Positions 1,000-61,598 of a DNA stretch of 64,000 nucleotides are shown in pieces. This DNA comes from Enterobacter phage fGh-Ecl02. The position numbers were made by a program, and so were the translations under genes. Where the stretch lies: the sequence record ON212266.1. One strand, given 5' to 3'. Positions within the stretch are counted from its first letter, which is position 1; every line of letters starts with the position of its first letter. The notes beneath the pieces are model-generated. The model searched no databases and was not told where the DNA came from. It saw nothing but the letters and a program-made list of their open reading frames with translations.

Positions 1000-1036
1000 C
1001 ACTAAATACCCCATATTGGCAAATCCTCTATGGGGT
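1000..1036 (+). promoter_or_regulatory. Late-promoter-like box CACTAAATACC plus leader hairpin
   Basis: Box at 1000-1010. Hairpin ACCCCATA..TATGGGGT at 1008-1036 overlaps the first ATG. Confidence 0.45.
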
Positions 1037-3708
1037 ATCTTCAAATGACCAGAAACGTCGAGAGCATCTTTGGAGCGGTCGTAACAGCTCCGCACCAGAT
1101 TCCATACACTTATACCGCAACGGGTGGAGAGACGTTTATCTCCCTCCCTTTCTACCCTGTCACTGGTATAGTCACAATCAACGGTGGTATGCAAGTTCCG
1201 TTAGACAACTTTGAAATCGATGGAAATACGTTGAATCTCGGGTGCGCATTATCCAAAGGTGACGTTGTGTTCTGTCTGTTTGATAAGATTCTGTCTCCAG
1301 AAGATTATAAAACCGGGATTCGAATCTATAAGTTTCAGGCTATAGGAGGTGAAACCGAGTTCACTCCTGATTACACATCTTATGGAGTCCAATCTCTTTA
1401 TATCGGTGGTGAGTACAAAACACCCGAAATTGAATATTCCTATGACAGCACGACAGGGAAAGTGTCTTTACAAACTGCGCTGACTGCAGGCGTTTGGGTA
1501 GTCGCTGAAATGTCTGTTAAACAACCGAATATCAGTCCGTTGTTTGACCGAAGTATTCAAGAAATCGCCCGTTCAGCTAATGTAAGAGATTCTGAAGTAA
1601 TCCTCAGCACGGATACTACTCAGCCCCTTAATGGTAAAAAGATTATCTTCGATGCAGCTTCTCAGAAAATTTATGGCCTGCCTTCATTACCGACCAATGT
1701 CTATATTAGTTCTGTGTCTAATGGTCAGTTAACCTACAGCCCGGGTAACATTACCGTAGATTTGATGGAAGTTCCTAATTCTGGTGCTAGTCTCAGAGAA
1801 GACCTGAGTAAGCCTGATGGTAGCAAGCTCATTGGTTCATGCCCCAATATTGCAGTACTGCGAACAATTGAGCCTACCTATGCTGAACAACGCATTTACG
1901 TAGAAGCACATACTGAAGGTATGTCTGCAACCAATGCAGGTGATTTGGGTGGTGGTTACTTTGTATATAAACCATCTGTTACATCAGCAGATGACAATGG
2001 TATGACTATTGTTACTGCATCCGGCAAGCGTTGGGTACGTGATTTACGTGGTAGCACCGAAGTTACCCCATCTATGTTTGGTGCGTGGATGGATGCTCCT
2101 TATATTGATGGGAGCACTATTCAGGGTACACCTTACCCTAAAGCACCGAGTATGGGGGCTGCTGACCTGTCCGGTGTGCATAATGATGGGGATGCTTTGC
2201 AGGCAACTTACTCGTATGCTGTAGCTAATGGGTTGAATATTAAAATTACCCAGCCAATGTATATTGGTGATACACAGATAGATATCAGTGATGCACGTTG
2301 GACAGGTAAATCTCTATCCATTACGGGTCTTGGTCAGAGACAAAGTATTATTTATACATCAGGTAAGGGTGGATTCATCTCTACCAGATGGGGGCATAAT
2401 ATTACTATTGGTCGCCTCTCTTTCCGTAATGCTGATTCTGATTACGTAGGTAGCCCTCTTGTTATTAGTTCATTCGACTTAAGTAATGGCATAGGTGGTG
2501 GTGGTAAGACATTTAATGTGCATGACGTGGACTTTTACCACTATAAGTTCGCTTTGCCTATGGCTTGCTTTGTCAGTGTTATGACCAATTTGTATGCATA
2601 TGACTGTACCTATGGTTTTGGTATCAATGGAAGCACTAGTACGGATATGTCATCTATTTGGGCACACCATTGTGACATTGGCTTTTTATGGGGAGCTGCC
2701 ATTAATCGTACTACATACGAGCCAGCCAGTAATGGAATGCCTGTTATGTATGTTGCTACCAGCAATATTGCAGCAGATGGTTGTATTTTACCTCATAAAT
2801 TTTATGGAGATATTCGTAGCCTTTCCTTCTCTGGCTTTGGTATTGAAGGGATAAATGGTCCAGTGGCATTAGACTTCTCGCAATTAGCTTCTCCTGCTGC
2901 ACAAACAACAATCGTATTCAGAGATGTTTCTTGTTGGATTCAGTCTAAAATGAATACTGGTGTAACTCATTTTATTGAGTTGCCTGCTAATGAGTACCAG
3001 GCTGGTAGGATTATTTTTGACAGTGGTTACGTTAACTCTGACTATGCTATCAAATTGATGGAGAATACCACTTCTCCAAGTAACCAGTATGTTGGGCGTA
3101 GTGTTACATTAAATAGTAATTTTGAATTTTTAAAAGTTAGCGATGGTTCCTACACAATATCTACATATAACCGTGGCAACCTTTACCGGGGCAGGGTATA
3201 TGGAGAAGATATTGTACAAGGTCGTAACTCGTACACGGGTACTACTTTGTCAGCAATCCATTCTAATAGTAATTCCTTCTTCAGAAGTGTTGACCACAAG
3301 GAAGCTACTGTACTGGTTCCATGGAACAGGGCTTTAGATATATTCCTTTGTGCTGTAGGGGAAGAGACTAAAATTCCGGATGGTTGCTTCGTTGCAGGAC
3401 GTGCAGATATCATTCCAGTTAACAAAAATGGTTTGGCTGGTACTGAATCAGGGGGCAGTATTCTGTTTGGGCTATCCGGTAGCACACAGGAAAATGTAGC
3501 CTCTGGTGCAGTTTGGTCCAATATGATTGCTGGTGATAAATCCCTTTCCGGGGTAACTGTAACCAAACTGGTACGTGATGGTAAAACATTTGTCAGAATT
3601 GCATTACCTACAGCAAGCCTAGTAAATGCAATCGTTCATCTGTCTGTATCCTACTGTGGTTTTGCACATTACTACGACAAGCGTTGGGAAGTAAAACCAT
3701 TAAGCTAA
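1030..3708 (+). CDS. Tailspike / receptor-binding protein (892 aa) with beta-helix repeats. Alternative start at ATG 1045, downstream of a leader hairpin.
   Basis: Long ORF with glycine/asparagine-rich repeats of the pectate-lyase type. N-terminal region plausibly the baseplate-attachment domain. Preceded by a late-promoter-like box at 1000-1010. Confidence 0.7.
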   Translation: MGYLQMTRNVESIFGAVVTAPHQIPYTYTATGGETFISLPFYPVTGIVTINGGMQVPLDNFEIDGNTLNLGCALSKGDVVFCLFDKILSPEDYKTGIRIYKFQAIGGETEFTPDYTSYGVQSLYIGGEYKTPEIEYSYDSTTGKVSLQTALTAGVWVVAEMSVKQPNISPLFDRSIQEIARSANVRDSEVILSTDTTQPLNGKKIIFDAASQKIYGLPSLPTNVYISSVSNGQLTYSPGNITVDLMEVPNSGASLREDLSKPDGSKLIGSCPNIAVLRTIEPTYAEQRIYVEAHTEGMSATNAGDLGGGYFVYKPSVTSADDNGMTIVTASGKRWVRDLRGSTEVTPSMFGAWMDAPYIDGSTIQGTPYPKAPSMGAADLSGVHNDGDALQATYSYAVANGLNIKITQPMYIGDTQIDISDARWTGKSLSITGLGQRQSIIYTSGKGGFISTRWGHNITIGRLSFRNADSDYVGSPLVISSFDLSNGIGGGGKTFNVHDVDFYHYKFALPMACFVSVMTNLYAYDCTYGFGINGSTSTDMSSIWAHHCDIGFLWGAAINRTTYEPASNGMPVMYVATSNIAADGCILPHKFYGDIRSLSFSGFGIEGINGPVALDFSQLASPAAQTTIVFRDVSCWIQSKMNTGVTHFIELPANEYQAGRIIFDSGYVNSDYAIKLMENTTSPSNQYVGRSVTLNSNFEFLKVSDGSYTISTYNRGNLYRGRVYGEDIVQGRNSYTGTTLSAIHSNSNSFFRSVDHKEATVLVPWNRALDIFLCAVGEETKIPDGCFVAGRADIIPVNKNGLAGTESGGSILFGLSGSTQENVASGAVWSNMIAGDKSLSGVTVTKLVRDGKTFVRIALPTASLVNAIVHLSVSYCGFAHYYDKRWEVKPLS

Positions 3709-3717
3709 TCAACTACT

Positions 3718-3743
3718 CCCCACCCCCATAAGGGGGTGGTTTA
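3718..3743 (+). terminator. Rho-independent terminator after the 892-aa tailspike gene
   Basis: CCACCCCC-ATAA-GGGGGTGG followed by TTT. Confidence 0.6.
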
Positions 3744-3765
3744 CTAGAAAAACAAAGAGGTTGTT

Positions 3766-6430: not shown

Positions 6431-6778
6431 TATATAGAATTTACTGTCTGCATTACCCTAACCGATACTGCTGTTAGGGTGATTACTTGTCCTGAGATAT
6501 AAACATACCCAATTGAATACCATCTATCATGAATGGGTCAGTTGAACCAAGTGTGTAAGTAGCCAATACGTTATCCCTATTAGAGATGTCCGTACCTTGT
6601 ACCTTAACACTAGCATCTGAACCCACTACTGTAGTTCCATTGGTTCGTCTTGTTTGCGTTCTTCACTCTCTTGCTGTACCAGCACAAATGGCGGAGGTCT
6701 TGAATCCATGACCATAACCACAGAAAGATAATCAAAGACCCTTCGGGCTTATTTCTTTCTATTCCTCGGTTGGCTGTA

Positions 6779-6798
6779 TACTAAATATCTCTATAATG
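6779..6798 (+). promoter_or_regulatory. Late-promoter-like box ACTAAATATC plus TATAAT upstream of the 1612-aa gene
   Basis: tatACTAAATATCtcTATAATgg, 24 nt before the ATG. Confidence 0.4.
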
Positions 6799-11958: not shown

Positions 11959-12280
11959 CACTGTGATCGATGTGAAAGCGATCCTCACCGGGGTGCTGAC
12001 GGCGACGATAGTCTCTGTTGGCTCGGTTGTTTGGATGATGGGTAAATTTGAGAATCGCCTTGATGTGGTTGAGCGTGACTCCAACAAGGTCGACCTAATC
12101 CTCACCAAGGTGAACGATATGAATGAGAAGATTGCTGTGTTAAACACAGACGTTAACTACGTCAAGCAGAACGTTGCTGAGTTGAAACTCAATAGCAACA
12201 GTCTATCCGATGACGTTCGCACTTTACGTATCACCGTCGCTGATATCCAGAGCAACAAGGGGAATGGCAATGGCCGTTAA
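11942..12280 (+). CDS. Small membrane-anchored coiled-coil protein (112 aa)
   Basis: Strong SD AGGAGG. Hydrophobic helix (ILTGVLTATIVSVGSVVWMM) followed by a heptad-like coiled coil. Stop overlaps the gp13 start (ATGGCCGTTAA). Confidence 0.5.
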   Translation: MATQTDTVIDVKAILTGVLTATIVSVGSVVWMMGKFENRLDVVERDSNKVDLILTKVNDMNEKIAVLNTDVNYVKQNVAELKLNSNSLSDDVRTLRITVADIQSNKGNGNGR

Positions 12281-13022
12281 TTCTATTGTTGATCGTAAAG
12301 GATTTATGAATTACATTCTCAAGAAATTGGGGGCACCTGTAATTCAGATCAACCTTGACCCAACGCAAGTTTCGGATGCTGTAGACGATGCTCTACAGAA
12401 GTTTTGGGAGTATCATCGTGATGGCAGTCAGGACGCATTCTTTGTTCACCAGGTGACTGAAGAAACTATCACCAACGGTTACATCGAATTCCCCAAAGAC
12501 ATCGACGACGTGGTTGAAGTCATCGTTGGCCCTCCGATTGAATCGATCGGTAACTGGGCAACCCCTCAATGGCAGATGGCCCAAGCCATGTTGGTACCAA
12601 AGGCTGCCCTCGTTTCCATCCGCTTGGTCGACTATGTTTCAATGCAACAGCGTTTGTCTGACATCACCAGTGTACTGAACGTGAAGCGCACCTTCGTTTA
12701 CAAGAAATTCCAGCGCAAACTCTACCCACAATTCGCCCTGATAAAGGACGAGGTGTTGGCGTTCAAATGCTTCCAGAACATCGACCCAGAGGTTGAGGGT
12801 AATGAAGAAGCATGGAATGATATGTGGCTGAAGGCATATGCAACTGCGTTGGTCAAGCGCCGCTGGGCAGAAGTGCTCAAGAAGGCAAGAGGCATCCGTC
12901 TCCCTGGCGGTATCGAGCTGGATGGCGATAGTATGTTCAGTGAGGCTGAAGCGGAGATCGAGCGTTTAGAGGAAGAACTGCGCACTGGTCAGCAGTACCC
13001 TATCGACTTCTACATAGGGTAA
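12270..13022 (+). CDS. 13: Neck protein gp13 homologue
   Basis: Alignable to T4 gp13: KKLGAPVIQINLDPTQV..YHRDG versus RRLGAPIINVELTPDQI..YHFDG, and C-terminal LPGGIELDG versus LPGGVTIDG. Confidence 0.8.
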   Translation: MAVNSIVDRKGFMNYILKKLGAPVIQINLDPTQVSDAVDDALQKFWEYHRDGSQDAFFVHQVTEETITNGYIEFPKDIDDVVEVIVGPPIESIGNWATPQWQMAQAMLVPKAALVSIRLVDYVSMQQRLSDITSVLNVKRTFVYKKFQRKLYPQFALIKDEVLAFKCFQNIDPEVEGNEEAWNDMWLKAYATALVKRRWAEVLKKARGIRLPGGIELDGDSMFSEAEAEIERLEEELRTGQQYPIDFYIG

Positions 13023-13050
13023 GAGAAGGCGGGTTGCCCCGCCCTTCTTT
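13023..13050. terminator. Bidirectional hairpin between gp13 (+) and the minus-strand 70-aa gene
   Basis: AGAAGGCGGG-TTG-CCCCGCCCTTCT, T-run on the + side. Both convergent genes end against it. Confidence 0.55.
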
Positions 13051-13262
13051 TAGATTTTCAAATCCAGGTTTCCGTTGCCACTACCACGCAGCAGACCGTC
13101 TTCTGTCTTGTCTTTGGAGTTCCACCACTCAATGAAGTCTGTGCCGTCTACTTCTTTCACCAGACCGACGATGTCGTAATCACCACCTCCAATCTTGGCG
13201 TCCACACAGATGATTCGGACGCGACGACCGCTGCGAACTTCTTTGATGTCTTCCACTTGCAT
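13050..13262 (-). CDS. Hypothetical 70-aa protein on the opposite strand, between gp13 and gp14
   Basis: ATG with SD GAGGA (spacing 7) on the minus strand. Flanked by a bidirectional hairpin (13023-13050). Not a low-complexity antisense artefact. Confidence 0.5.
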   Translation of the reverse strand: MQVEDIKEVRSGRRVRIICVDAKIGGGDYDIVGLVKEVDGTDFIEWWNSKDKTEDGLLRGSGNGNLDLKI

Positions 13263-13289
13263 GAGCTATTCCTCAAAAGAATAAACTTC

Positions 13290-13318
13290 GACTAAATACC
13301 TTCAAAATTGAGGGTATC
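13290..13318 (+). promoter_or_regulatory. Late-promoter-like box plus leader hairpin upstream of gp14
   Basis: cgACTAAATACC then ATACCtTC..GAgGGTAT hairpin. Confidence 0.45.
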
Positions 13319-13321
13319 GAT

Positions 13322-13972
13322 ATGGCCACTTCTAAATATTTCAACGCCACCAATCACCAAGGCACACAGAAGCTGATTGAAGATTTGGTACAGGAAATGA
13401 TTGAGTTGCGCGGGATAGACATCAAGTATATACCCCGTTCCATCGTTGAAAAATTTCCTATCACCAACGATGCTAACCACAGATTCGACCAGGCGTTCGA
13501 CATCGAAGCGTACATGCAGGATTATCAGGGCTTCAACACCCAGATGTGGGAGAAGTTTGGGGGTATCCAATTACAAGACGAAGTGACGTTCTCTATCTCG
13601 CGCCGCCGATTTGCCGAGGTGATAGGCAACGGTGTTGGGATTGAACAACAACCTCAGGAAGGTGACCTGATCTATCTACCACTGGCGAACAAGATCTTCA
13701 AGGTCAACAACCCGAACAACGATGAAGACTTCATGCAATTTGGCAAATGGTATACATTCTCTCTGCCGTGCACGTTGTTCCAGTACGGCAACGAAAACTT
13801 CGATACGGGCGTTCCGGAGATCGACGATATTGACAAACGTCTGTCCATCTTGGACGAAGAGAACGAACCGGACGTGTACAAGGATTCTTCTCTACAGACT
13901 GACAATGCTTTAGCAGATGATCTTGAGAAGGGGCTTGCAACAGACAATATGAAGATCGACTTTGGAGAATAA
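13322..13972 (+). CDS. 14: Neck protein gp14 homologue
   Basis: EGDLIYLPLANKIFKV versus T4 gp14 EGDLIYFPMDNSLFEI. Late-promoter-like box and leader hairpin upstream. Confidence 0.8.
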   Translation: MATSKYFNATNHQGTQKLIEDLVQEMIELRGIDIKYIPRSIVEKFPITNDANHRFDQAFDIEAYMQDYQGFNTQMWEKFGGIQLQDEVTFSISRRRFAEVIGNGVGIEQQPQEGDLIYLPLANKIFKVNNPNNDEDFMQFGKWYTFSLPCTLFQYGNENFDTGVPEIDDIDKRLSILDEENEPDVYKDSSLQTDNALADDLEKGLATDNMKIDFGE

Positions 13973-13974
13973 TC

Positions 13975-14670
13975 ATGGCCAGACCATTTGAAAATTACTT
14001 CTACCATGATTCATTGATGAAATACATCAATCTGTTTGCCACCATTATGTCTGATCTGAAGGTGAACACAGAGCGTGGTCTTATGGAAGTCCCATTACAC
14101 ATGGCCATCGGGAGACGCAATGACCTCAACAGGAACGTGCCGTCCAACATGCTTCCATTTGCGACTTTCTCTTTTGGTCAGTTTGAGATCAACAAACAGG
14201 TGACGAAGACGTACCACAATCGACAATCGACACCAACAGCAGGGGCGAAGCAGCGAATCCCCCTGATTATCGATTTTGAGTACAATATCCGAACCAAGAA
14301 ATTGGTTGAGATGTTACAGGTGCTAGAGCAGGTTTATTCGGTATTCACCCCCTCTCTAGACTGTGGTATCAAGGACAACGATACACTACAGCAAGACCAG
14401 AAGATCAAGATCCAACTGGTCAGCCACCAGATGTCCGATAACTGGGAAGGGGATGCTTCTGATTCACCACACGTCGACTGCTCCTTCATGTTCCAGCTGA
14501 GCGGCTTCATCTACGGGTATGACTATTGGGTGGACAACGGTGGAGGCGGGGATCCTAACGGGATCAAAGAGATAATTATCGAAATGTCTAATGATTTGAA
14601 AACACCGTGGACGGAACTGCCGGAGTGGTTCCGTGTTGACAAAGACGGTGTACATCATCCTGGAGATTGA
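13975..14670 (+). CDS. 15: Tail sheath stabiliser/completion protein gp15 homologue
   Basis: N-terminal FxxYxxLMxDL pattern and position after gp14, as in T4. SD GGAGA. Confidence 0.75.
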   Translation: MARPFENYFYHDSLMKYINLFATIMSDLKVNTERGLMEVPLHMAIGRRNDLNRNVPSNMLPFATFSFGQFEINKQVTKTYHNRQSTPTAGAKQRIPLIIDFEYNIRTKKLVEMLQVLEQVYSVFTPSLDCGIKDNDTLQQDQKIKIQLVSHQMSDNWEGDASDSPHVDCSFMFQLSGFIYGYDYWVDNGGGGDPNGIKEIIIEMSNDLKTPWTELPEWFRVDKDGVHHPGD

Positions 14671-14672
14671 TT

Positions 14673-15380
14673 ATGAGTGCTATGTCAGAACGCCTATTAT
14701 CCACCCTCAGCGCTATCCAAGCGCGAGATGAGGTCGCTCAAGAAGTCATGGAGAAGACCTCGCCTGTGGCTGGAAAGGATTACGATCCGGATACAGGCGT
14801 GTGGTTGGGTGAAAAGCCTGTGGGGTATGAGCCTGTGGTGTTTCCTCCTTCATTGGACCCAGAAGAGCTGAAGCCCAAGGAATCTAAGGTTCCAGACTTC
14901 GAAGACACTGATGCCACCACCGACTACAAACGCATCCGTGACACAACTTATGCCATGCAGGAAGCCACGATGTTCATGATGGGACAGGCAGCCAAACTTG
15001 CGACGACGACTGAAGCACCCCGTGCTTTCACAGTCTTCAAAGAGTTGGGTGAACTCATGCGCGGTCTGAACAAAGACCTGATGGAGAACCAGAAAACCAT
15101 CAAGGCGGTCACGGGCGACAGAGAGCCGCCTCCTGGAGACGAAACAACCGTCGAGGTCACCACGTCCCCTGATGGCACAACCACGGTCAACGTCGGTAAA
15201 CAGGCCAGGTCTTCCCGTGATCTACTGAAGACCATCGAAGACGCCCGTAAACGTGCTGAAGAACGTGCTGCAGCGAAATCTGCGTCCAAAGGACCTGATC
15301 CCGAAGAAGATGTAATCGACGTTCAGGCGGAGCCGCAGCCGAAGGAAGAAGGTGAAGACAATGGCGTATCAGAAGCGTGA
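14673..15380 (+). CDS. 16: Terminase small subunit gp16 homologue
   Basis: Central segment (DTDATTDYKRIRDT..AAKLATTTEAPRAFTVFKEL) parallels T4 gp16 (DLEDDYGVVRRN..AAKIFLETAK..PRHMEVFATL). Sits immediately before the terminase large subunit. Confidence 0.7.
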   Translation: MSAMSERLLSTLSAIQARDEVAQEVMEKTSPVAGKDYDPDTGVWLGEKPVGYEPVVFPPSLDPEELKPKESKVPDFEDTDATTDYKRIRDTTYAMQEATMFMMGQAAKLATTTEAPRAFTVFKELGELMRGLNKDLMENQKTIKAVTGDREPPPGDETTVEVTTSPDGTTTVNVGKQARSSRDLLKTIEDARKRAEERAAAKSASKGPDPEEDVIDVQAEPQPKEEGEDNGVSEA

Positions 15381-17571
15381 TGTAGAATACGCCCCGCTCA
15401 AGACGGGGTTTCGGACAGAAGACGTCAGACTGCGTATGGACCAAACGTTCATGCGCAAGCCGTCTGTGCGCGCTCCTCGCGTGGAGTTGATGCTAACAGA
15501 TGAGCAGGAATCGGAGTTCGTCGAGTGTGCGATGGACGCCCATTACTTCGCCGCCAACTACTACAAGATAACGACCATCGATAAAGGCTTCATCCTCTTT
15601 GATATGCACGATTATCAGAAGCAGTTGTTCCATGACTTCCAGGACTATCGATTCAATGTGGTCGTCCAGGCTCGTCAGTCTGGGAAATGTGTAAAAGGTG
15701 ACACGCTTGTCACAGTTTACGATACTCTCAGTCAAGAGGAATTGATCCTGACTATAGGGGAGCTTCACAGTCGCTTCGAGGACGTCAACCACGCTGTGCC
15801 ACTGAATACCATTGGCAACCATGACAAGTTCGTGGACAGCCGCTTCGGCAAACGTTATTTTGTACAATCCGATAGTGGCTGGGTTCCGGTTATCGCAGCA
15901 CATAAGACGAAGAAATATGCGGAATTCGTTATTGTCACCGTTACCGGGCGGCGAATTAACGTGGCCGATGAACATATGTTCTTCACTCCGGAAATGAAGG
16001 AGATATTTGCCAAAGACCTGAATGCTGGGTCATACATCATGACGTCAGAAGGTCCAGAAGAAATTCGTGAGATTTGGCAGACTGGTGAAATGCATCACAT
16101 GTATGACCTACAGGTGAAATCTAGTGATCAGCGCTACTACACCAACGGCTTCCTCAGCCACAACACGACAGTCGTGGCAGCATTCCTTCTCTGGTATGCC
16201 ATGTTCCACTCTGACAAAGAGATAGCAGTACTGGCGAACAAAGAGAAGCAGGCGATTGAAATTCTAGATCGTATTCGCAAAGCATATCAAGATCTGCCAT
16301 TCTTCCTCCAACAGGGTTGTGAGAAGTTCGGTTCCACGCTGATCGAGTTCGAAAACGGATCAAAGATCTATGCTTACGCGACGTCTTCGGACTCCATCCG
16401 TGGTCGATCCGTATCGCTACTGTATGTGGATGAAGTGGCGTTCATCGAAAACGACTTTGAGTTCTGGGAGTCTACATTCCCGGCGATTGCATCTGCGGAT
16501 ACTTCACGTTGTATCCTGACCAGTACACCGAAAGGCCAGCGTGGATTGTTCTACGACATCGTCACCAAGGCGAATCCAGAACATCCACAATACAATGACT
16601 TCAAACTCACAGAGGTCCCATGGTATCGTGTTCCAACGTACACCAAAGATCCAAACTGGGAAACCAAGCAGAGAGCGAAGCTGGGTGATGCACGTTTCGA
16701 TCAGGAATTCGGTATCAAGTTCCGTGGTTCTGTGGGATCACTGATACCTTCCAAGTGTCTGGACAAGATGACATCGAAGCTGTATCAGGAGCCGAACGAG
16801 TTCACCAAGATTTACCACGACTACGATCCGAAGCGCATTTATATGGGTATCGCAGATACAGGCAAGGGCGTCGAGGGGGATTATTCTGTGCTGACCATTA
16901 TCGACATCACAGACTATCCTCACAAGATCGCAGCCAAGTATCGAAACAACACGATACCTCCAATGATGTATGCGTACACAATCGCCGATATGGGCGAGAA
17001 GTATGGAACGTGCCCGATGCTAGTCGAGACCAACAACGACGTGGGTGGTCAGGTAATCACAATTCTATATCAGGAAATTGAATATCCCGAGATCATATTC
17101 ACTACAACAGATACCAAGGGTACAGGCAAGAGAATCGGTGGTCGCCGCCCTGAGCCTGGTATCAATACCAACAAGAAGGTGCGCACAAACGGCTGTGCCA
17201 ACCTGAAAGCCCTGATTGAACGTGAAATGCTGGTGATAGATGACCAGGACACGATAGATGAACTCAGTACATTCGTATGGACTGGAACAAGGTATGAAGC
17301 CGATGATGGTTGTCATGATGACTGTGTAATGCCCCTCGTGTTGTATGCATGGGCGGTGAAACAAGAATGGTTTAGTGATCTCACCAATTCAAATATCTCT
17401 GTGGACATGAGAGGACGGTTGTCTGCGATGGAAGAATCTCAGATGCTACCATTTGGGGGTATGATGTCGACGCCAGATCCTCACTCTGTGGAGAACATCC
17501 CAGGGTTCGGTGGAATTCAGGTTTATGATGAACGCTCTGGTATGTCTATGGAAGAATGGCTGAGACGGTGA
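15361..17571 (+). CDS. 17: Terminase large subunit gp17 homologue, interrupted by a mini-intein in the Walker A motif
   Basis: Exteins give ARQSGK|TTVVAAFLLW, a P-loop. Downstream ATPase/nuclease regions are T4 gp17-like. 739 aa versus about 610 for T4 gp17. Confidence 0.9.
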   Translation: MAYQKRDVEYAPLKTGFRTEDVRLRMDQTFMRKPSVRAPRVELMLTDEQESEFVECAMDAHYFAANYYKITTIDKGFILFDMHDYQKQLFHDFQDYRFNVVVQARQSGKCVKGDTLVTVYDTLSQEELILTIGELHSRFEDVNHAVPLNTIGNHDKFVDSRFGKRYFVQSDSGWVPVIAAHKTKKYAEFVIVTVTGRRINVADEHMFFTPEMKEIFAKDLNAGSYIMTSEGPEEIREIWQTGEMHHMYDLQVKSSDQRYYTNGFLSHNTTVVAAFLLWYAMFHSDKEIAVLANKEKQAIEILDRIRKAYQDLPFFLQQGCEKFGSTLIEFENGSKIYAYATSSDSIRGRSVSLLYVDEVAFIENDFEFWESTFPAIASADTSRCILTSTPKGQRGLFYDIVTKANPEHPQYNDFKLTEVPWYRVPTYTKDPNWETKQRAKLGDARFDQEFGIKFRGSVGSLIPSKCLDKMTSKLYQEPNEFTKIYHDYDPKRIYMGIADTGKGVEGDYSVLTIIDITDYPHKIAAKYRNNTIPPMMYAYTIADMGEKYGTCPMLVETNNDVGGQVITILYQEIEYPEIIFTTTDTKGTGKRIGGRRPEPGINTNKKVRTNGCANLKALIEREMLVIDDQDTIDELSTFVWTGTRYEADDGCHDDCVMPLVLYAWAVKQEWFSDLTNSNISVDMRGRLSAMEESQMLPFGGMMSTPDPHSVENIPGFGGIQVYDERSGMSMEEWLRR
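15688..16164 (+). mobile_element. Mini-intein (159 aa) inside terminase gp17
   Basis: Begins with Cys (CVKGDTLV, block A), ends with ...FLSHN followed by a +1 Thr. Too short for a homing-endonuclease domain. Removing it restores GKT. Confidence 0.8.
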
Positions 17572-17582
17572 TCACTAAATAT
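17572..17582 (+). promoter_or_regulatory. Late-promoter-like box upstream of gp18
   Basis: tCACTAAATATC, about 40 nt before the ATG. Confidence 0.45.
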
Positions 17583-17623
17583 CTTTCAAATTGAGCGAAA
17601 CTCTACAGAGAAGGAATAAGATT

Positions 17624-19519
17624 ATGGCAACTCAAAGCTTCAGCGTTGCGCCGTCCGTACAGTGGACTGAGCGTGATGCCACGCTTCAGACGTCTCCATC
17701 CGTTGTTGTTCAGGGTGCGACTGTCGGCAAATTCCAATGGGGTGAAGCAGAACTCCCTGTGTTGGTCACTGGTGGCGAAACTGGTCTGGTGAAGAAATTC
17801 TTCAAGCCAAACGATGCAACTGCCACCGACTTCTTGGTGATTGCTGACTTCCTGTCTTACAGCTCTGTTGCATGGGTGACCCGTGTGGTCGGTCCGGCGG
17901 CACGCAACGCTGTAACCAAAGGTCAGACTGCAATCCTTATCCGCAACAAACTAGACTTCGAAACTGCGTCCCCATCTGCGTCTATTACCTGGACAGGCCG
18001 CTATGCTGGCTCTCTGGGTAACGACATTGCTGTGAACATCTGTGATGCTGCGCTGTTCCCGACCTGGGAATTCCGTAACAACTTCGCATATGCTCCGCAG
18101 GATGGCGAGTACCATATCGCCATCGTTGACAAAGTAGGTCGCATTACCGACTCTTCTGGCGCTGTTAGTCAGGTTGATCGTATCTCTGTATCCGGTACTG
18201 CCACCGCTGCTGGTTCCATCTCTGTTGCTGGTGAAGCCGTGGCGTACACTGACGCTGACACCCCGGCGACTCTGGCGACAAAGATCGGAACTGCGCTGAC
18301 GTCTCTGTCTGACGTGTATTCTTCTGTTGTCGTGAAGTCCAACACCGTCACCGTCACTCACAAAGCAATCGGTCCTCAGGCTGCGACTGCGATTGTTCCA
18401 GACGCGAATGGCCTGACTGCTACCGCTGCCGTCACCACTGTTGGTGCTTCCGGTACGATCATCGAGAAGTATGAACTGGTGCAGACCACTCAGGGTTCTA
18501 AGAAATCTGATGGATCCAATGCGTACTTCAAAGACGTGATCAACGGCACCTCAAATTGGGTGTACACCTTCGCCACTACCCTGGCTGCTGGTGTCATTGA
18601 ACTCGAAGGTGGTGTAGACGATTACACTGGGAACCGTGTTGCGGCTATCCAGGCACTGAACAACGCCGAAGCGTATGATGCCAAGCCAGTGTTCGGTTTC
18701 TGTGAAGAACTGATTGAGCAGCAGGCACTGATCGACCTGTCCACTGAGCGTAAAGACACAGTGTCCTTCGTGTCTCCTCTTCGCGATGCGGTCGTCGGAA
18801 ACCGTGGCCGTGAGATGGATGATGTTGTGGCCTGGCGTGAAAGCCTTGTTCGCGACTCCTCCTACTTCTTCATGGATGACAACTGGGCGTATGTGTACGA
18901 CAAGTACAACGACAAAATGCGTTGGATTCCGGCTTGTGGCGGCACCGCAGGTGTTTGGGCGCGAAGCATTGAAATCGCGGGTATCTACAAATCTCCGGCG
19001 TTCCACAACCGTGGTAAATACAACAACTATAATCGAATGGCGTGGTCTGCGTCTTCTGATGAGCGTGCTGTGCTATATCGCAACCAGATCAACAGCATCG
19101 TCACCTTCTCCAACGAAGGCATCGTGTTGTACGGCGACAAGACTGGCCTGACCCGCCCATCTGCGTTCGACCGCATCAACGTTCGTGGTCTGTTCATCAT
19201 GGCAGAACAGAACATCGCAGCCATCGCCAAATACTACCTTGGTGAGAACAACGATGCATTCACTCGTGGGTTGTTCAGCAACGCTGTCCGCCCATATATC
19301 CGCCAGTTGGCCAACATGGGCGCGATCTATGACGGGATGGTGAAGTGTGATGAGGACAACAACACCGCTGATGTTATCGCAGCCAACACCATGGTCGCGG
19401 GTATCTGGCTGAAACCAGAATACAGCATTAACTGGATATTTTTAGATTTCGCCGCCGTCCGCCCAGACATGGAGTTCTCCGAGATCGAATCCGGTGGTGG
19501 TATCGTTGCAGCCTCCTAA
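17624..19519 (+). CDS. 18: Tail sheath protein gp18 homologue
   Basis: N-terminal GKFQWGE and C-terminal DRINVRGLF..LFSNAVRPY match T4 gp18 (GKFQWGP.., DRINVRRLF). SD GAAGGA. Confidence 0.9.
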   Translation: MATQSFSVAPSVQWTERDATLQTSPSVVVQGATVGKFQWGEAELPVLVTGGETGLVKKFFKPNDATATDFLVIADFLSYSSVAWVTRVVGPAARNAVTKGQTAILIRNKLDFETASPSASITWTGRYAGSLGNDIAVNICDAALFPTWEFRNNFAYAPQDGEYHIAIVDKVGRITDSSGAVSQVDRISVSGTATAAGSISVAGEAVAYTDADTPATLATKIGTALTSLSDVYSSVVVKSNTVTVTHKAIGPQAATAIVPDANGLTATAAVTTVGASGTIIEKYELVQTTQGSKKSDGSNAYFKDVINGTSNWVYTFATTLAAGVIELEGGVDDYTGNRVAAIQALNNAEAYDAKPVFGFCEELIEQQALIDLSTERKDTVSFVSPLRDAVVGNRGREMDDVVAWRESLVRDSSYFFMDDNWAYVYDKYNDKMRWIPACGGTAGVWARSIEIAGIYKSPAFHNRGKYNNYNRMAWSASSDERAVLYRNQINSIVTFSNEGIVLYGDKTGLTRPSAFDRINVRGLFIMAEQNIAAIAKYYLGENNDAFTRGLFSNAVRPYIRQLANMGAIYDGMVKCDEDNNTADVIAANTMVAGIWLKPEYSINWIFLDFAAVRPDMEFSEIESGGGIVAAS

Positions 19520-19522
19520 CGC

Positions 19523-19547
19523 GCATGCCCTCTTCGGAGGGCATTTC
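19523..19547 (+). terminator. Terminator after the sheath gene
   Basis: ATGCCCTC-TTCG-GAGGGCAT followed by TTCAAT. Confidence 0.55.
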
Positions 19548-19600
19548 AATGGTCTCTCGCGGGTTAAAATGGAACGATTTTACTGAGAGAGAGCATCGAA

Positions 19601-20299: not shown

Positions 20300-20319
20300 C
20301 TCTTTCTGGAGAATCTATA

Positions 20320-20853
20320 ATGGCTACAGTTAATGAATTCAGAGCAGCTATGTCACGCGGGGGCGGCGTTCAGCGCCAACACCGTTGGCGTGTGACTGTT
20401 AACTTCCCTTCCTTCGTGGCTGGAAGCGATACTATCCGTGATGTTTCGCTGTTGGCGGTGACCACAAATACCCCAACAGGCCAGCTCGGGGAAATACTCG
20501 TCCCATGGGGTGGTCGTGAACTTCCATTCCCAGGTGACCGCCGCTTCGAAGCGCTGCCTGTGACGTTCATCAACGTCGTGGACAACGCCCCGTACAACGC
20601 ATTCGAAGTCTGGCAGCAGTACATCAACGGCAGCAACAACAACCGTGCGTCTGCTAACCCAGATGATTATTTCCGTGATGTAATCATGGAACTGCTGGAT
20701 GCGAATGACAACGTCACCAAGACCTGGACCCTTCAGGGCACCTGGCCTCAGAACCTCGGTCAGCTGGAACTGGACATGTCTGCAATGGACTCTTATACTC
20801 AGTTCACTGTTGACCTGCGTTACTTCCAGGCCATTTCAGACAAGTCTCTCTAA
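20320..20853 (+). CDS. 19: Tail tube protein gp19 homologue
   Basis: C-terminus GTWPQNLGQLELD..TQFTVDLRYF versus T4 gp19 GLWPTNVGELQLD..QTFEVTLALDYW. Confidence 0.85.
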   Translation: MATVNEFRAAMSRGGGVQRQHRWRVTVNFPSFVAGSDTIRDVSLLAVTTNTPTGQLGEILVPWGGRELPFPGDRRFEALPVTFINVVDNAPYNAFEVWQQYINGSNNNRASANPDDYFRDVIMELLDANDNVTKTWTLQGTWPQNLGQLELDMSAMDSYTQFTVDLRYFQAISDKSL

Positions 20854-20919
20854 TGTCCTCAGTGCTGGGGGATCTTTATTCCCCCTCACTAATTACAAGA
20901 AAATGTTGAGGACTTAATC

Positions 20920-22614: not shown

Positions 22615-22651
22615 TTCGACTAAGTATAGAAAACATTTAGAGGATATGAAC

Positions 22652-23825: not shown

Positions 23826-23849
23826 CACTAAATACTGAAAATCGTTCAG
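23826..23849 (+). promoter_or_regulatory. Late-promoter-like box plus leader hairpin upstream of gp22
   Basis: CACTAAATAC then CTGAA-aatcg-TTCAG. Confidence 0.45.
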
Positions 23850-30498: not shown

Positions 30499-30530
30499 CC
30501 CTAAATACCCCCATCATCCATGGGGGTATT
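30499..30530 (+). promoter_or_regulatory. Late-promoter-like box plus perfect 10-bp leader hairpin
   Basis: CCTAAATACC then ATACCCCCAT-catcc-ATGGGGGTAT. Confidence 0.45.
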
Positions 30531-30535
30531 TTCTT

Positions 30536-31672: not shown

Positions 31673-31943
31673 GTTCTCATCAAAGCAACCTAAAGGTACG
31701 AGCTTCTGGAAGGGCTGGAACTCTTGCACGATGATGTCCAGCATACCCTTGTTACAAGTGGGAACGCTGGCCGACAACGTCACAGGTACAGTGCGCACTT
31801 CTGGGTTCCAGAGTTCGGAAACAGAAATTATTGGCGTGACAAAGATGCGACAGCTCGTAAACAAGAGCATCGAGCATGCCAACAACAATCTACTGATCCC
31901 GCGCATCAGGGTCACAAAATATCTCCACAGCAAAGGTGCTATT

Positions 31944-32954: not shown

Positions 32955-33701
32955 ATGGCATCTCTCCAGGATCTACGCAAGCTGAATGACTTCGAAAACC
33001 GTCATTACACATTCCAGCAGTACGAACTTCCTTACAAGGAACTGGAGTGTGTGACGACGGAAAACGGTCGTCATTATGTATCGCCGACTGGTGTCAAGCT
33101 GACATCCGTCACGACTATGCTGGGGCGTACTGGTGATCATGAATGGCTTGAGGCTTGGAGGAAGAAGCTAGGTGCAGAGGCCGCCGACCTTGAGACCATG
33201 CGTTGCGCTGACCGAGGGGAGAAGCTGCACCTTGCGTGCGAACTGTATTTGAAGAACCGCCCAATGAAAGAAGTGTTGGAAGCGGCTGGCGAATACATGT
33301 TCATGTTCAAGCAGCTGTTCCCTTACCTGAACAAGATGACAAAGATCTATGCTCAGGAGATCCCATTATATAGCGAGGTGCTTGGTCTTGCAGGTCGAGT
33401 AGACCTTATCGGGATTTATGAGGGTAAACCTGCTATCATCGACTTCAAGACATCGAACACCATGAAGACGCGGGGCATGATCGAGGATTACAGTATCCAG
33501 CTGTGCTTATATTCGGTCATGTTCCAGCAGATGTTCGGCGTCAAGATCACCCGCCTCATCAACGTGATTGCCAACGAGTCTTCCCCTCTACCAACCGTAA
33601 TTGAGTTCAACCGTGATGACATTCTGACAAAGATGTTTGAGCGTGTTCGTCTGTATCATCGCATGGATAAAGAACAAAACGGAGTCTGGCCAGATCACTA
33701 A
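32955..33701 (+). CDS. PD-(D/E)xK nuclease (RecB/Cas4/YqaJ-like)
   Basis: GRVDLIGI..AIIDFKTS (D..ExK) followed by QLCLYSVMF (the QxxxY motif of RecB-family nucleases). Confidence 0.6.
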   Translation: MASLQDLRKLNDFENRHYTFQQYELPYKELECVTTENGRHYVSPTGVKLTSVTTMLGRTGDHEWLEAWRKKLGAEAADLETMRCADRGEKLHLACELYLKNRPMKEVLEAAGEYMFMFKQLFPYLNKMTKIYAQEIPLYSEVLGLAGRVDLIGIYEGKPAIIDFKTSNTMKTRGMIEDYSIQLCLYSVMFQQMFGVKITRLINVIANESSPLPTVIEFNRDDILTKMFERVRLYHRMDKEQNGVWPDH

Positions 33702-33706
33702 ATACC
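33696..33706 (+). promoter_or_regulatory. Late-promoter-like box upstream of uvsW
   Basis: CACTAAATACC, 25 nt before the ATG. Confidence 0.4.
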
Positions 33707-35950: not shown

Positions 35951-36619
35951 ATGCAAGAGATCACTCTCTCCGAACGCACACTTCAGTTGCTGGCTAACTT
36001 TGAGACCATCAACCCATCTATCGTCCTGACACCAGGCAAGATGCTGCGCAGCATTAACGATTCGTCTACTGTTATCGCCGTGGCACAGATCGAAGAAGAC
36101 TTCCCGTTTGAGTTCCCGATTCTGGACCTGACCAAACTTCTGGCCATCCAGCGCCTACCTTCCTTCAAAGGTGCCAAAGCCGAATTCCATCAGGACTACA
36201 TCCTGTTGAAAGGCGAAAGCTCTCAGCTGCAATTCTGGCGTTCTGCTAAAGAACTCACGGTCGTCCCGGCTGATACTATTGAACTGCCGTCTGTTGACTT
36301 TGAAGCTATCATCACTCCAGAGAAGATGAAAGAACTGACCCGCGCCTGTTCTACCCTCGGACACAAGACTGTGCGCTTGGTTGCTCAGGGTGGCAAAACT
36401 CGCCTGGTTGCAACCACCACTACCTTGGATAACTCCAACAACTACACCGTTGAGCTGGGCGAAACCGCGCTGCCGGACTTCGTAATGCCGCTGGATGTTG
36501 CCAACCTGAAAATGATCGAAGGCAACTACACTCTGCGTGCCTGTGCTGATCTACAGATGGTGAACTTCCAATCATCCGACGCGACGATCAATTACTTCGT
36601 CGGCGCACAGATTGAGTAA
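35951..36619 (+). CDS. 45: Sliding clamp gp45 homologue
   Basis: TLQLLANFETINPSIVL versus T4 gp45 TALLKNFATINSGIML. Same 45-44-62-regA order as T4. Confidence 0.85.
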   Translation: MQEITLSERTLQLLANFETINPSIVLTPGKMLRSINDSSTVIAVAQIEEDFPFEFPILDLTKLLAIQRLPSFKGAKAEFHQDYILLKGESSQLQFWRSAKELTVVPADTIELPSVDFEAIITPEKMKELTRACSTLGHKTVRLVAQGGKTRLVATTTTLDNSNNYTVELGETALPDFVMPLDVANLKMIEGNYTLRACADLQMVNFQSSDATINYFVGAQIE

Positions 36620-44095: not shown

Positions 44096-44329
44096 ATGTC
44101 TAAAGAGATTATTTTTACCGGGGCGGCGCTTGACACCATGTATGCCCTGTACAATCGTGGTCCACTGAGCATTGGCGATATCCCGTCTAAGTCAGGTCTG
44201 GACTTCCTGTTGCGACATAAGCTGGTTGTGGCTGTGGTAGTCAGGGGTGAAACGCAATACGCCGGGTCGATGGCCATGGCTTCCCACTACAAACGTCAGA
44301 CATGGAAGGGCGCTTCCTCCAAATCCTGA
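44096..44329 (+). CDS. Hypothetical protein (77 aa)
   Basis: ORF immediately downstream of the previous gene. Confidence 0.4.
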   Translation: MSKEIIFTGAALDTMYALYNRGPLSIGDIPSKSGLDFLLRHKLVVAVVVRGETQYAGSMAMASHYKRQTWKGASSKS

Positions 44330-44434
44330 GTTTGTCAAAACCTTTTCAATATCAATAACGTCCAGCGTAAATGCTGGGCGTTTCAATTAGCAGTACATGG
44401 TATAATGGGACTGCTGACGAATACGAGGTGTATC

Positions 44435-44797
44435 ATGTCTGTGAAGATGAAAGGTGCTGAGTTCAAAACCTATTATCACGATGACCAATATTGGGTACAA
44501 GACGCCTGGCACGAAGATCACGTCATCAAAGTGAATGGCGAATATGTCGAAGATGTAATCGACGATGAGATCCCTAACGATGCTGATGTCGTGATCGAGT
44601 CTGGAGTTGTCTATATTCCGTCTCAAACTGATAGCGGTCGTGTTGAAAAGGAAGTGTCGCTTGTTACTCACTTCAAGAACTGGCGCAAGCAGAACAAATT
44701 CTCCTTCATCGTCGTGACGGTGGAGAAGGACAAGGTCGCCGATGTTCGCCAAGCCCTGCGGTCGATCCCTGGCGTTACTGAAGTCAAGGGCGGCTGA
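44435..44797 (+). CDS. Hypothetical protein (120 aa)
   Basis: SD GAGGTG, start context GTATCATG. Confidence 0.45.
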   Translation: MSVKMKGAEFKTYYHDDQYWVQDAWHEDHVIKVNGEYVEDVIDDEIPNDADVVIESGVVYIPSQTDSGRVEKEVSLVTHFKNWRKQNKFSFIVVTVEKDKVADVRQALRSIPGVTEVKGG

Positions 44798-44798
44798 T

Positions 44799-44969
44799 AT
44801 GGCCAAACCATTTGAACGTGTGGGCGTCGACAACCTCGACCGCCGCTTTAGCCCATCGGAAACGCTGATGAGTCAGATTGAACTCAATCGCGACTTCCTT
44901 GAATATATGCTGGTCAAGCCGGAAGGTGAGGCCGAAGACAACCCTGAAGAAGGCAATAACGATGATTGA
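44799..44969 (+). CDS. Small acidic protein (56 aa)
   Basis: ATG 1 nt after the previous stop. Its own stop overlaps the next start (ATGATTGA). Confidence 0.35.
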   Translation: MAKPFERVGVDNLDRRFSPSETLMSQIELNRDFLEYMLVKPEGEAEDNPEEGNNDD

Positions 44970-47892: not shown

Positions 47893-47951
47893 TTCTATAA
47901 CTTTGGGCGGGGTATGATTACCCCGTCTATTTGAAATGCAGGAACTATACC

Positions 47952-48458: not shown

Positions 48459-48510
48459 ACCCACGGCGGGGTATGATTACCCCGCCCATTTGAAACCAAG
48501 AGACTATATC

Positions 48511-51809: not shown

Positions 51810-51855
51810 TCAATAACCTCGGGCGGCTTATCATAAAGCTGCCCTTTCATTTGAG

Positions 51856-56569: not shown

Positions 56570-57361
56570 ATGGGAATGAACTTCGTGGACAGAGGGGAGA
56601 ATGTCGTCAAATATTTCACAGACGAAGATAACGAGCGTGTCATCAGCATCCTGCGTGATTGGATCCCTGCTCGTAAGAAGGCTCTGGCTGAAGGCACCAG
56701 GCTTCCAAAGATCCCCAACTATGTTGCTCTACAGGTCCAGCGCATCATCACCAAGATGAGCACCCGCTACAACTATCGCGACTATCCCTTCCGTGAAGAC
56801 ATGGTCTCTGAAGCAATAGTCAACATATTGCGCTACCTCCACACATTTGACGTCGAACACATTGGAAAGAAAGGGAAGATCAACTTCTTCTCTTGGGTGA
56901 CCATGTGTGCTGATCGATCATTCGCTCGTAAACTGAATATCGAAGAAGAACACACGTACATCAAATTGCGCTCATTTGAAGAGGCGGGTGGGTTCGCAGG
57001 CCTGGCAGACGATCCCGACTTCAAACAAGAGATCTTTGTTGACGCGACAGGGATTGGCATGGACTTCCGTGAACGTATCGGTAACTTTGAGAACAAAAAG
57101 GACGCTCAAAGGCAGAAGGAACGAGAGAAGGTGGAGGCAGCTCGTCTCGCAGAATCGAATAAAAAGATTGCGAAAGGCATACTTCAATACATGGCGCAGG
57201 CTAAGAATACGGTAACAGCGCAGGCCGAAGACAATTCAGATCAGGACTTCGGCAAAACCCAATTCAATCTGGAAGATGATATCTGTGCGATGGAACCAGA
57301 TTGGGAAGCCCTCAAACAAAGATTAGAAGAACGGGAGAAAAAGAACAATGGCGATTGCTAA
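56570..57361 (+). CDS. 55: Late sigma factor gp55 homologue with a C-terminal extension
   Basis: RYNYRDYPFREDMVSEAIVNILRYLHTFDVEH..FFSWVTMCADRSFARKL parallels T4 gp55 [52 protein letters not shown]. 263 aa versus 185 in T4. Confidence 0.7.
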   Translation: MGMNFVDRGENVVKYFTDEDNERVISILRDWIPARKKALAEGTRLPKIPNYVALQVQRIITKMSTRYNYRDYPFREDMVSEAIVNILRYLHTFDVEHIGKKGKINFFSWVTMCADRSFARKLNIEEEHTYIKLRSFEEAGGFAGLADDPDFKQEIFVDATGIGMDFRERIGNFENKKDAQRQKEREKVEAARLAESNKKIAKGILQYMAQAKNTVTAQAEDNSDQDFGKTQFNLEDDICAMEPDWEALKQRLEEREKKNNGDC

Positions 57362-60803: not shown

Positions 60804-60968
60804 ATGAACTACGAACAAATTAAACTCGCAATACTGATCTTTGCATGCATCATTGACATCGTTGCATTTTCTCGTGAAGTCGAAAGGAAAAACTACCTGA
60901 AATCACTGGGATATCTCGGGTTCTCTGTCTGGTTCTGTTATCTACTTGCAGGTCAAATCCTGAAATGA
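60804..60968 (+). CDS. Small membrane protein (54 aa), absent from the ORF table because it is under 60 aa
   Basis: ATG 3 nt after the gp46 stop. Two hydrophobic segments. Stop overlaps the next start (ATGA). Confidence 0.35.
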   Translation: MNYEQIKLAILIFACIIDIVAFSREVERKNYLKSLGYLGFSVWFCYLLAGQILK

Positions 60969-61294
60969 AAGTCGTACACTTCAAGAAGGAGCCATATGAC
61001 GTCTACATTGGTCGGCCTGGTAAATGGGGGAACCCGTTTGAGGTCAAAGACCATGGACGAGGCGTCTGTATCGAACTGTTTGAGGACGTCCTGTATGTGC
61101 GCCTGATTGAAGGGGATATCACTGAGGATGAACTCCTTGATCTTGACGGGAAGGTATTGGGGTGCTGGTGTAAGCCGCGCCCCTGCCACGGAGATGTTTA
61201 CGTCAAAGTCGTCGGGCGTATTAAACTATTCCGCAAGCTGGGTAAATCCTTTACCGAACATCTGAGACAAACGTATGTCAGAAAACAAAGATGA
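60965..61294 (+). CDS. DUF4326-family protein
   Basis: YIGRPGKWGNPF...GCWCKPRPCHGDV is the characteristic signature of that phage-associated family. Confidence 0.55.
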   Translation: MKVVHFKKEPYDVYIGRPGKWGNPFEVKDHGRGVCIELFEDVLYVRLIEGDITEDELLDLDGKVLGCWCKPRPCHGDVYVKVVGRIKLFRKLGKSFTEHLRQTYVRKQR

Positions 61295-61559
61295 AATTCA
61301 GGAATCCTGTGACATTGCTGTGGAGATATGGAATCGCAGGAATCCTCATTACCAAGTAACCGTCACTCCGAATCGTTATCTTGAGCAGGGCGGCCTGATT
61401 GTGGTTGATGCTGTACTCGCTTTCAACAAGTACCAAGATATGCAGATCCTGGACGGCAACTTTACCGTCGCGACCAAGACGGCATGGGATGACCCTCTAC
61501 AGTTCGTCTATGGCTGGCTGGAGTGTATCGAGGAATCCTACCACCTCATCTACGAATGA
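61275..61559 (+). CDS. Hypothetical protein (94 aa)
   Basis: ORF overlapping the previous gene by 20 nt. Terminator hairpin downstream (61566-61598). Confidence 0.4.
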   Translation: MSENKDEIQESCDIAVEIWNRRNPHYQVTVTPNRYLEQGGLIVVDAVLAFNKYQDMQILDGNFTVATKTAWDDPLQFVYGWLECIEESYHLIYE

Positions 61560-61565
61560 GGCTGA

Positions 61566-61598
61566 AGGGCACTAAATACCACGTGCCCTTTATCTTTT
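61566..61598 (+). promoter_or_regulatory. Terminator hairpin whose loop carries the late-promoter-like box
   Basis: AAGGGCAC-taaataccac-GTGCCCTT followed by TATCTTTT. Box ACTAAATACC in the loop. Confidence 0.4.

Follow-up and report, generated by a model that had tools for sequence, protein, structure and literature searches.

A probable late-promoter box and adjoining hairpins over ribosome-binding sites in an Ackermannviridae phage

The 64,000-nucleotide (nt) stretch of Enterobacter phage fGh-Ecl02 analysed here (ON212266.1; "the window") carries a recurrent box with the core CTAAATA(C/T)C, and our subject is this box together with the hairpins that adjoin some of its copies. Judged by its sequence, the window comes from an Agtrevirus-like phage of the Ackermannviridae: with positions 12000–30000 as megablast query it is 97.5% identical to Escherichia phage AV101 (Ackermannviridae, Aglimvirinae), and the same search returned 296 related records, which include phages of Salmonella, Klebsiella, Escherichia and Dickeya. 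The AV101 annotation was transferred to the window by tblastn. Nearly all genes in the resulting map lie on the plus strand, in the order tailspike genes, VriC, gp13 to gp23 and small genes; then the DUF7217 gene, a gp3-like gene, UvsY and UvsW, followed by gp45/44/62, regA and many small genes; and last helicase, RNase H, gp55, gp47/46 and a Vs.1/SLT-like gene. The original prediction, which was made from the letters alone, had placed a gp55 homologue at 56570, and this identification was borne out by the PHROG collection (Table 1); the protein went unrecognised in Pfam and in sequence searches of the PDB, and its AV101 orthologue is annotated Gp55. The gp45 sliding clamp, a co-activator in T4-type late transcription (PMC2988020), is also encoded in the window, and gp33 is annotated in AV101 at a place outside the window.

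The 11-mer CACTAAATAYC occurs exactly at 1000, 17573, 33696 and 61570, four copies where 0.07 are expected and a number that no shuffle reached. Copies with one mismatch lie at 6779, 13290, 23826 and 30499, and the variant CACTAATTAC starts at 20887; at two mismatches there is no enrichment (31 copies, 23.9 expected). The predicted copies are thus real, although two of their coordinates had slipped (17572 for 17573 and 20883 for 20887). The shorter CTAAATA is found ten times on the plus strand of the window and never on the minus strand. Eight of these copies are intergenic, though only 7.4% of the window is non-coding (92.6% is coding), and all eight lie at most 95 nt upstream of a start codon; seven copies are within 60 nt upstream of a plus-strand start (binomial p = 5.8e-7). 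The copies at 13332 and 62159 are the two that fall in coding sequence. The original prediction would have failed had the box been just as frequent inside coding sequence; with eight of ten copies non-coding and seven of ten close to starts, this is not so. From the start of the box to the ATG the distance is 32–51 nt, with the single exception of 61570 (87 nt, ATG 61657).

The complete AV101 genome has 18 copies of CTAAATA, 15 of which are intergenic and upstream of genes. These genes are mostly structural and include three of the four tailspike genes, VriC, gp14, gp18, gp22, the baseplate genes gp48 and gp6, the DUF7217 gene and UvsW, which in T4 is a late gene. We aligned the 15 intergenic sites with CTAAATA, which is fixed by the search itself, at -12 to -6. 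Position -5 is C or T in 14 sites (C in 10) and -4 is C in 13, with CCCC a frequent continuation; A is weakly preferred at -13 and G at -17. Apart from this weak G, the information profile of these sites shows nothing conserved upstream of -13, and no -35 element. The leading CA is not conserved among the 15 sites, so the core CTAAATA(C/T)C stands and the consensus proposed earlier specified too much at its 5' end. Other genera keep the box at orthologous sites even where the sequence directly upstream diverges. The gp20 site has the variant CTAATTA in all genera, and this variant recurs in the Kuttervirus copy of the 61570 site.

We conclude that the box very probably serves as the -10 element of late promoters that depend on gp55, because it is T4-like, strand-specific, intergenic, conserved and upstream of late-type genes (tailspike, VriC, gp14, gp18, gp22, UvsW and others), and because gp55 and gp45 are encoded by this phage and gp33 by its close relative AV101. 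The predicted likeness to the T4 late promoter TATAAATA is real, CTAAATA fitting six of the eight T4 positions (-11 to -6) of a box that spans -13 to -6 (Geiduschek and Kassavetis 2010, PMC2988020). In both cases there is a single A/T-rich box of the -10 type without a -35 element, upstream of structural or late genes, and homologues of the gp55, gp33 and gp45 used by T4 are present here (gp33 in AV101). The differences are a C in place of A at -12, a -13 position that is not fixed, and the sequence downstream of the box, which is C-rich here (C/T at -5, C at -4) and AT-rich in T4 (PMC2988020). By analogy with T4 we infer both the position of +1 and the dependence on gp55.

The box is not new. 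Its consensus CTAAATA(C/T)C matches, and to judge by the letters is, the already published Viunalikevirus/Ackermannviridae motif CTAAATAcCcc. The original description of that motif is reportedly the Viunalikevirus proposal of Adriaenssens et al. (2012, Arch Virol). It has been given as a regulatory motif for phage EspM4VN (PMC7283392). The box itself is identical to the published one, the core in the window often being followed by CC, and the copy number per genome is comparable (18 in AV101); the CA prefix is absent from the published consensus. The earlier CBA120 and AG3 papers had not yet identified the motif, and the late promoters predicted in the AG3 paper (TATAAATA with one mismatch) are sites other than these boxes. 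A link between the motif and hairpins is not mentioned in PMC7283392, and we found no paper that makes it.

Table 1. Boxes, hairpins and late-transcription genes of the window; the last four rows give hairpin arms at positions of the AV101 genome.
Feature	Position	Strand	Remarks
Box CTAAATACC, tailspike (ATG 1045)	1002..1010	+	predicted +1 ~1014; kept in 16 related loci despite differing upstream sequence
Hairpin ATACCCCATA / TATGGGGTAT (tailspike)	1006..1038	+	-17.1 kcal/mol, z -4.2; stem conserved, loop varies
Box CTAAATATC, VriC (ATG 6822)	6781..6789	+	no local hairpin
Box CTAAATACC, gp14 (ATG 13322)	13292..13300	+	predicted +1 ~13304; in 19/19 related loci
Hairpin TACCTTCA / TGAGGGTA (gp14)	13297..13316	+	-11.4 kcal/mol, z -2.9
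Box CTAAATATC, gp18 tail sheath (ATG 17624)	17575..17583	+	no hairpin
Variant box CTAATTA, gp20 portal (ATG 20920)	20889..20895	+	kept in all loci
Box CTAAATACT, gp22 scaffold (ATG 23862)	23828..23836	+	adjoining 5-bp stem 23836-23850 not significant
Box CTAAATACC, DUF7217 gene (ATG 30536)	30501..30509	+	predicted +1 ~30513
12-bp hairpin AAATACCCCCAT / ATGGGGGTATTT (DUF7217)	30503..30531	+	-19.1 kcal/mol, z -3.6
Candidate variant box CAAAATA, gp3-like tail gene (ATG 31944)	31915..31921	+	weak candidate
Box CTAAATACC, UvsW (ATG 33730)	33698..33706	+	only weak CCCC/GGGA pairing with Shine-Dalgarno sequence
gp45 sliding clamp gene	35951-36616 (open reading frame); 35951..36619 (feature)	+	PHROG 223, E 1.1e-64
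gp55-type late sigma factor gene	56570..57358 (open reading frame); 56570..57361 (feature)	+	PHROG 234 'late sigma transcription factor', E 5.6e-52
Intrinsic terminator GAAGGGCAC-loop-GTGCCCTTT + TATCTTTT	61564..61599	+	box 61572-61580 in loop
CTAAATATC within 3' end of Vs.1/SLT-like gene	62159..62167	+	~110 nt before next annotated start
AV101 arms ATACCCCA / TGGGGTAT	3500		
AV101 arms ATACCCCTAGATG / CATTTAGGGGTAT	149906		
AV101 arms ATACCTCTGCA / TGTGGAGGTAT (TTAAATACCTCTGCA...TGTGGAGGTATTT)	72026		
AV101 arms ATATCCTCGC / GCGAGGATAT (TATAAATATCCTCGC...GCGAGGATATT)	13977		

Five of the boxes had been said to carry a stable hairpin that begins within the box or a few nt after it. Each site was folded and compared with 300 dinucleotide-preserving shuffles, and three of the five hairpins proved significant (1006–1038, 13297–13316 and 30503–30531). 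The fourth, claimed at 23835–23849 (a 5-bp stem at 23836–23850), folds at -3.2 kcal/mol with a z of +0.2, no better than its shuffles, and the fifth, at 61564–61591, is an intrinsic terminator (below). The gp14 hairpin is unchanged in 14 of 19 related loci, and the hairpin at 30503–30531, which is followed by TCTT and is weakly terminator-like, is conserved in nine loci, including loci with the TTTAAATACC form of the box. Loop length varies between 4 and 17 nt, with differences among genera, and the stems are unchanged. Scanning the whole window against Rfam (gathering thresholds) gave no matches.

The position of the hairpins relative to the box bears directly on what they could do. Their 5' arms start inside the box, in its AAATA part (box position 3–6), at 1006, 13297 and 30503 for boxes at 1002–1008, 13292–13298 and 30501–30507, and with the spacing known from T4, +1 falls on the final bases of the 5' arm in all three cases. 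Transcripts from the late promoter would therefore lack this arm, and since it starts in the -10 box, the hairpins would form only on RNA begun upstream. Leaders folded from the predicted +1 have energies of -0.3 to -5.7 kcal/mol at nine of ten sites and -10.7 kcal/mol for the long leader that begins at 61584. The proposal that a hairpin stands at the extreme 5' end of the late mRNA fails on both counts, the 5' arm lying within the -10 box and the predicted leaders being nearly unstructured; it was in fact contradicted by the +1 that the original prediction itself assumed, 6–8 nt downstream of the box. Stem-loops at the 5' end are a known mRNA-stabilising device, and the hairpins are real and adjoin the box. 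Nevertheless, a model like that of ompA, with the hairpins guarding the extreme 5' end of late mRNA against 5'-end-dependent decay, seems to us highly improbable: at any spacing a transcript has to begin downstream of its -10 element, and the predicted late leaders have no 5'-terminal stem. The likeness to an ompA-type stabiliser is limited to the presence of a stem-loop near the start of the leader; the ompA hairpin has to lie no more than a few nt from the 5' end of its mRNA, whereas here the 5' arm is upstream of the predicted start.

What the three hairpins have in common is the content of the 3' arm. It holds the only Shine-Dalgarno (SD)-like sequence before the gene (GGGG at 1032–1035, GAGGG at 13310–13314 and GGGGG at 30522–30526), 7–9 nt from the ATG, and the pairing extends into the TAT that follows the SD, a TAT without a role in ribosome binding. 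The probability that the SD is paired is 0.79–0.99 at the genes that start at 1045, 13322 and 30536 (0.88 for 13322 and 0.99 for 30536); for tailspike 1045 it is 0.80 on read-through RNA and 0.47 on the late transcript. In folding windows of 54 nt the median pairing probability of the SD zone is 0.75 in box genes, compared with 0.37 in 65 others (Mann-Whitney p = 0.002), and windows of 110 nt give 0.75 and 0.53 (p = 0.003). Strong SD-covering hairpins precede four of six box genes and two of the 65 other genes, and for six of the ten box genes the SD is freed in the predicted late transcript. The anti-SD segment of gp20 and VriC is upstream of the box and not inside it. At gp20, GTCCTCA at 20855–20861, upstream of the variant box, exactly complements the SD TGAGGAC at 20907–20913; this long-range helix gives an SD pairing probability of 0.89 on read-through RNA and of 0.40 on the late transcript, and some related loci use another segment, AACGTT, for pairing.

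A like design is present in AV101 outside the window, at 3500, 146320 and 149906 (two further tailspike genes among these), 72026 and 13977; the arm sequences vary by site (Table 1), each being matched by its own partner. Because orthologous stems are almost invariant, we turned to a comparison of paralogous sites and to a swap test, in which the pairing of each 5' arm with its own leader was set against its pairing with the leaders of the others. A first version was biased, its sites having been picked for their hairpins, and the second took all 15 unselected intergenic AV101 sites. The mean for own leaders was -9.4 kcal/mol and for others' leaders -5.9 kcal/mol, a result reached in none of 50,000 permutations. 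The same variation bears on the idea that the inverted repeats are DNA operators, through which a dimeric phage or host protein would repress or activate the late promoter that they overlap, in the manner of I-TevI at its own late promoter. The palindromes do overlap promoters, and autorepression has a precedent at T4 late promoters (PMC2988022), but the half-site spacing varies from 4 to 17 nt and the arms differ from site to site (ACCCCAT, ACCTTCA, ACCTCTGCA, ATCCTCGC). Since spacing and arms vary and the partners nonetheless match, the pattern fits RNA pairing and not a single DNA-binding protein, and we give the operator explanation very little credence.

The structure at 61564–61591 was classed by inspection as an intrinsic terminator with the box in its predicted 10-nt loop; a 9-bp GC-rich stem, conserved in 11 of 12 related loci, is followed by the T-rich TATCTTTT. 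The predicted +1 for the 61572 box is ~61584, inside the 3' arm of the terminator, and the ATG downstream is at 61657. The intervening 65-nt leader (61592–61656) is almost invariant across genera, beyond what is typical of non-coding DNA here; it contains a small hairpin, GCTC-AAGC-GAGC, and the palindrome GTCGAC, and has no Rfam match. The layout of a promoter inside a terminator loop recurs in four terminator-like GC-rich hairpins with a -10-like hexamer in the loop (TATAAT, TATGAT or TTATCAT), at 39522–39546, 47906–47927, 48465–48486 and 51821–51844, two of which are followed by (C/T)ATTTGAAA.

If the promoter hairpins, too, were mainly terminators or 3'-end stabilisers of the upstream genes, their overlap with the promoter would save space and their cover of the SD would be incidental. 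The canonical terminator with its box-bearing loop, kept in 11 of 12 loci, speaks for this, as does a second such case in AV101 at 75461; the hairpin at 30503–30531 combines a GC-rich core with a loop of 5 nt and a tail of UAUUUUCUU, and the A-rich box and T-rich 3' end recall the A-tract and U-tract of terminators. A simple terminator scan (GC-rich stem, loop of 3–8 nt, T run), however, flags none of the three hairpins, the 12–17-nt tailspike loops and poor T runs (TATCTTCAA, TATCGAT) are atypical, and the 3' arm always coincides with the SD, 2–9 nt from the ATG. We therefore think it unlikely that termination is their main role. The two functions are not exclusive of one another, and a terminator role is possible at 30503–30531 as well. 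Still less can be said for termination in the opposite direction, in which the complement of the box, TATTTAG, would serve as a T-rich tail, so that hairpin and box end antisense transcription into the late clusters. The scan does flag a minus-strand structure at 33721–33705 with the tail TATTTAGTGA, but this is the sole case and a weak one, most sites have no minus-strand promoters or genes downstream, and the constant place of the SD in the 3' arm would be left unexplained; we regard this explanation as extremely improbable.

The original prediction was thus largely right in what it observed, and right in its promoter reading, which had already been published; its 5'-leader mechanism is wrong, and the hairpins are likely a new instance of a device known from T4. 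In T4 genes e, soc, 49, I-TevI and segB, and in Aeh1 mobE, the late promoter lies within the DNA for the 5' strand of a hairpin that sequesters the SD, so that early and middle read-through RNA is silent and late RNA is translated (PMC3014915, PMC2988022). With moderate confidence we favour a corresponding reading here, in which a late box is read with the help of gp55, the hairpins hide the ribosome-binding site on read-through RNA and the late RNA is open. Host RNA polymerase with the phage gp55-type sigma factor would recognise CTAAATA(C/T)C as a -10 element. At about a third of the box promoters the 5' arm of the hairpin would consist of the box's 3' half together with the C-rich bases that follow, and the 3' arm of the SD region of the downstream gene. 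Late transcription would begin ~6 nt past the final A of the box, where the 5' arm ends, and the hairpin would exist only on RNA begun further upstream, where it would mask the ribosome-binding site; transcripts from the late promoter would be without the 5' arm and have this site open. The hairpin at 30503–30531 perhaps also causes some termination. At 61564–61591 upstream transcripts would end at the terminator, and late ones would escape it by beginning inside it, with +1 in its 3' arm. Within this scheme we infer the read-through RNA and the translational effect.

As in the e/soc type of T4 hairpin, the 3' strand here holds the SD or AUG and the probable late promoter is in the DNA of the 5' strand. 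The differences from that type are that the stem takes in the -10 box itself, with the conserved C run acting as the predicted anti-SD, and that the design is predicted to recur in each genome at ~7 genes, among them three of the four tailspike genes of AV101. The rationale known from T4, the silencing of early read-through, fits the DUF7217 gene well, because this gene follows a run of small genes preceded by early-type TTCAATA: copies at 29026 and 29049 lie upstream of the small-gene unit that ends at 30497, just before the DUF7217 gene. Between the end of the gene upstream of the first tailspike hairpin (965) and the start of that hairpin (1006) there is no terminator.

Several points weigh against the favoured reading. 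Any transcription reaching gp14 and the tailspike genes from upstream has probably ended before it gets there or is late as well, and the T4 rationale is therefore clear only for DUF7217; at the tailspike genes and gp14 the gate would, as a matter of speculation, tie translation to each gene's own promoter. Four of the ten box genes (gp18, gp22, the gp3-like gene and SLT/Vs.1) have little or no predicted release of the SD, and the gp14 hairpin is missing or far weaker in five of the 19 related loci. True covariation among orthologues is nearly absent because their stems are mostly identical across genera, the one change being from G-U to G-C at the third tailspike site, and the evidence for selection comes mostly from the comparison of paralogous sites and not from orthologues. 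The AT-rich stretch just downstream of the box in T4 late promoters is replaced here by what is often CCCC. Finally, in the literature searched there is no mapped transcript 5' end for any Ackermannviridae phage, searches for transcriptome or transcription-start data on Kuttervirus and other Ackermannviridae having given nothing relevant, and +1 is placed by analogy with T4.

It is conceivable, though we hold it to be somewhat doubtful, that the 3' half of the box and its C run ('cCcc', which resembles an anti-SD) have been selected as a built-in anti-SD, so that the choice of promoter acts as a genome-wide translational gate. If so, a sizeable share of the late genes, most tailspikes among them, would be translatable only from transcripts of their own promoters, and the C-rich late promoters of these phages, as opposed to the AT-rich ones of T4, would be accounted for.

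Finding the known box again adds only a correct late-promoter annotation for this phage. The hairpins, on the other hand, suggest that one phage family makes repeated use of control in the style of T4, with translation of a gene restricted to the late transcript from its own promoter. Ackermannviridae phages are widely used in biocontrol and as engineered reporter phages, and tailspike swaps or reporter insertions downstream of these promoters would unknowingly break or inherit such a gate. The analysis also supplies concrete predictions for the first 5'-end map of an Ackermannviridae phage, and corrected start codons for two genes, at 30536 and 61657.

Both of these start codons are, from the sequence comparison, probably misannotated in relatives. 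The annotated DUF7217 start at 30494, which would make the box coding, was discarded on the grounds that most related genomes lack this ATG and that the ATG at 30536 is conserved together with its SD. For the Vs.1/SLT-like gene the probable start is ATG 61657 and not TTG 61783; the protein then has an N-terminal signal-peptide-like sequence, MTMTTLKAMALSVTFTIASGNVHA. The copy of the box within the 3' end of this gene, at 62159, is either an internal promoter or a chance match.

The window has other promoter-like sequences. A sigma-70-like promoter, TTGGCT-16 nt-TATAAT (10 of 12 matches), overlaps the VriC late box at 6770–6797, and the supplement of the AG3 paper lists the orthologous VriC site as an early promoter of sigma-70 type, Porf206. 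Upstream of the major capsid gene gp23, 91 nt (24714–24804) are nearly invariant across genera; they contain no canonical CTAAATA and two conserved alternative candidates for a variant box, ACTAAGTAAT and AACTGAATATC. CTAAGTA precedes a small gene at 22652. The sequence TTCAATA(A/T) is found intergenically on the plus strand, upstream of small genes, at 27767, 28028, 29026, 29049, 40812, 44345, 47601, 53016, 62916 and 62947, and corresponds to the group's other published motif, TTCAAT[N14]TATAAT, presumably the early promoter. Several small genes (28318, 47945, 48504, 51859 and 63009) share the start-codon context CTATA(T/C)C-ATG.

Two differences from AV101 were seen in the gene content of the window. 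The genes for nicotinamide phosphoribosyltransferase and ribose-phosphate pyrophosphokinase, with one small open reading frame, are present in AV101 and missing from the window (44329–44962), and an in-frame stop at 32442–32444 makes the gp3-like tail gene three codons shorter than its AV101 orthologue.

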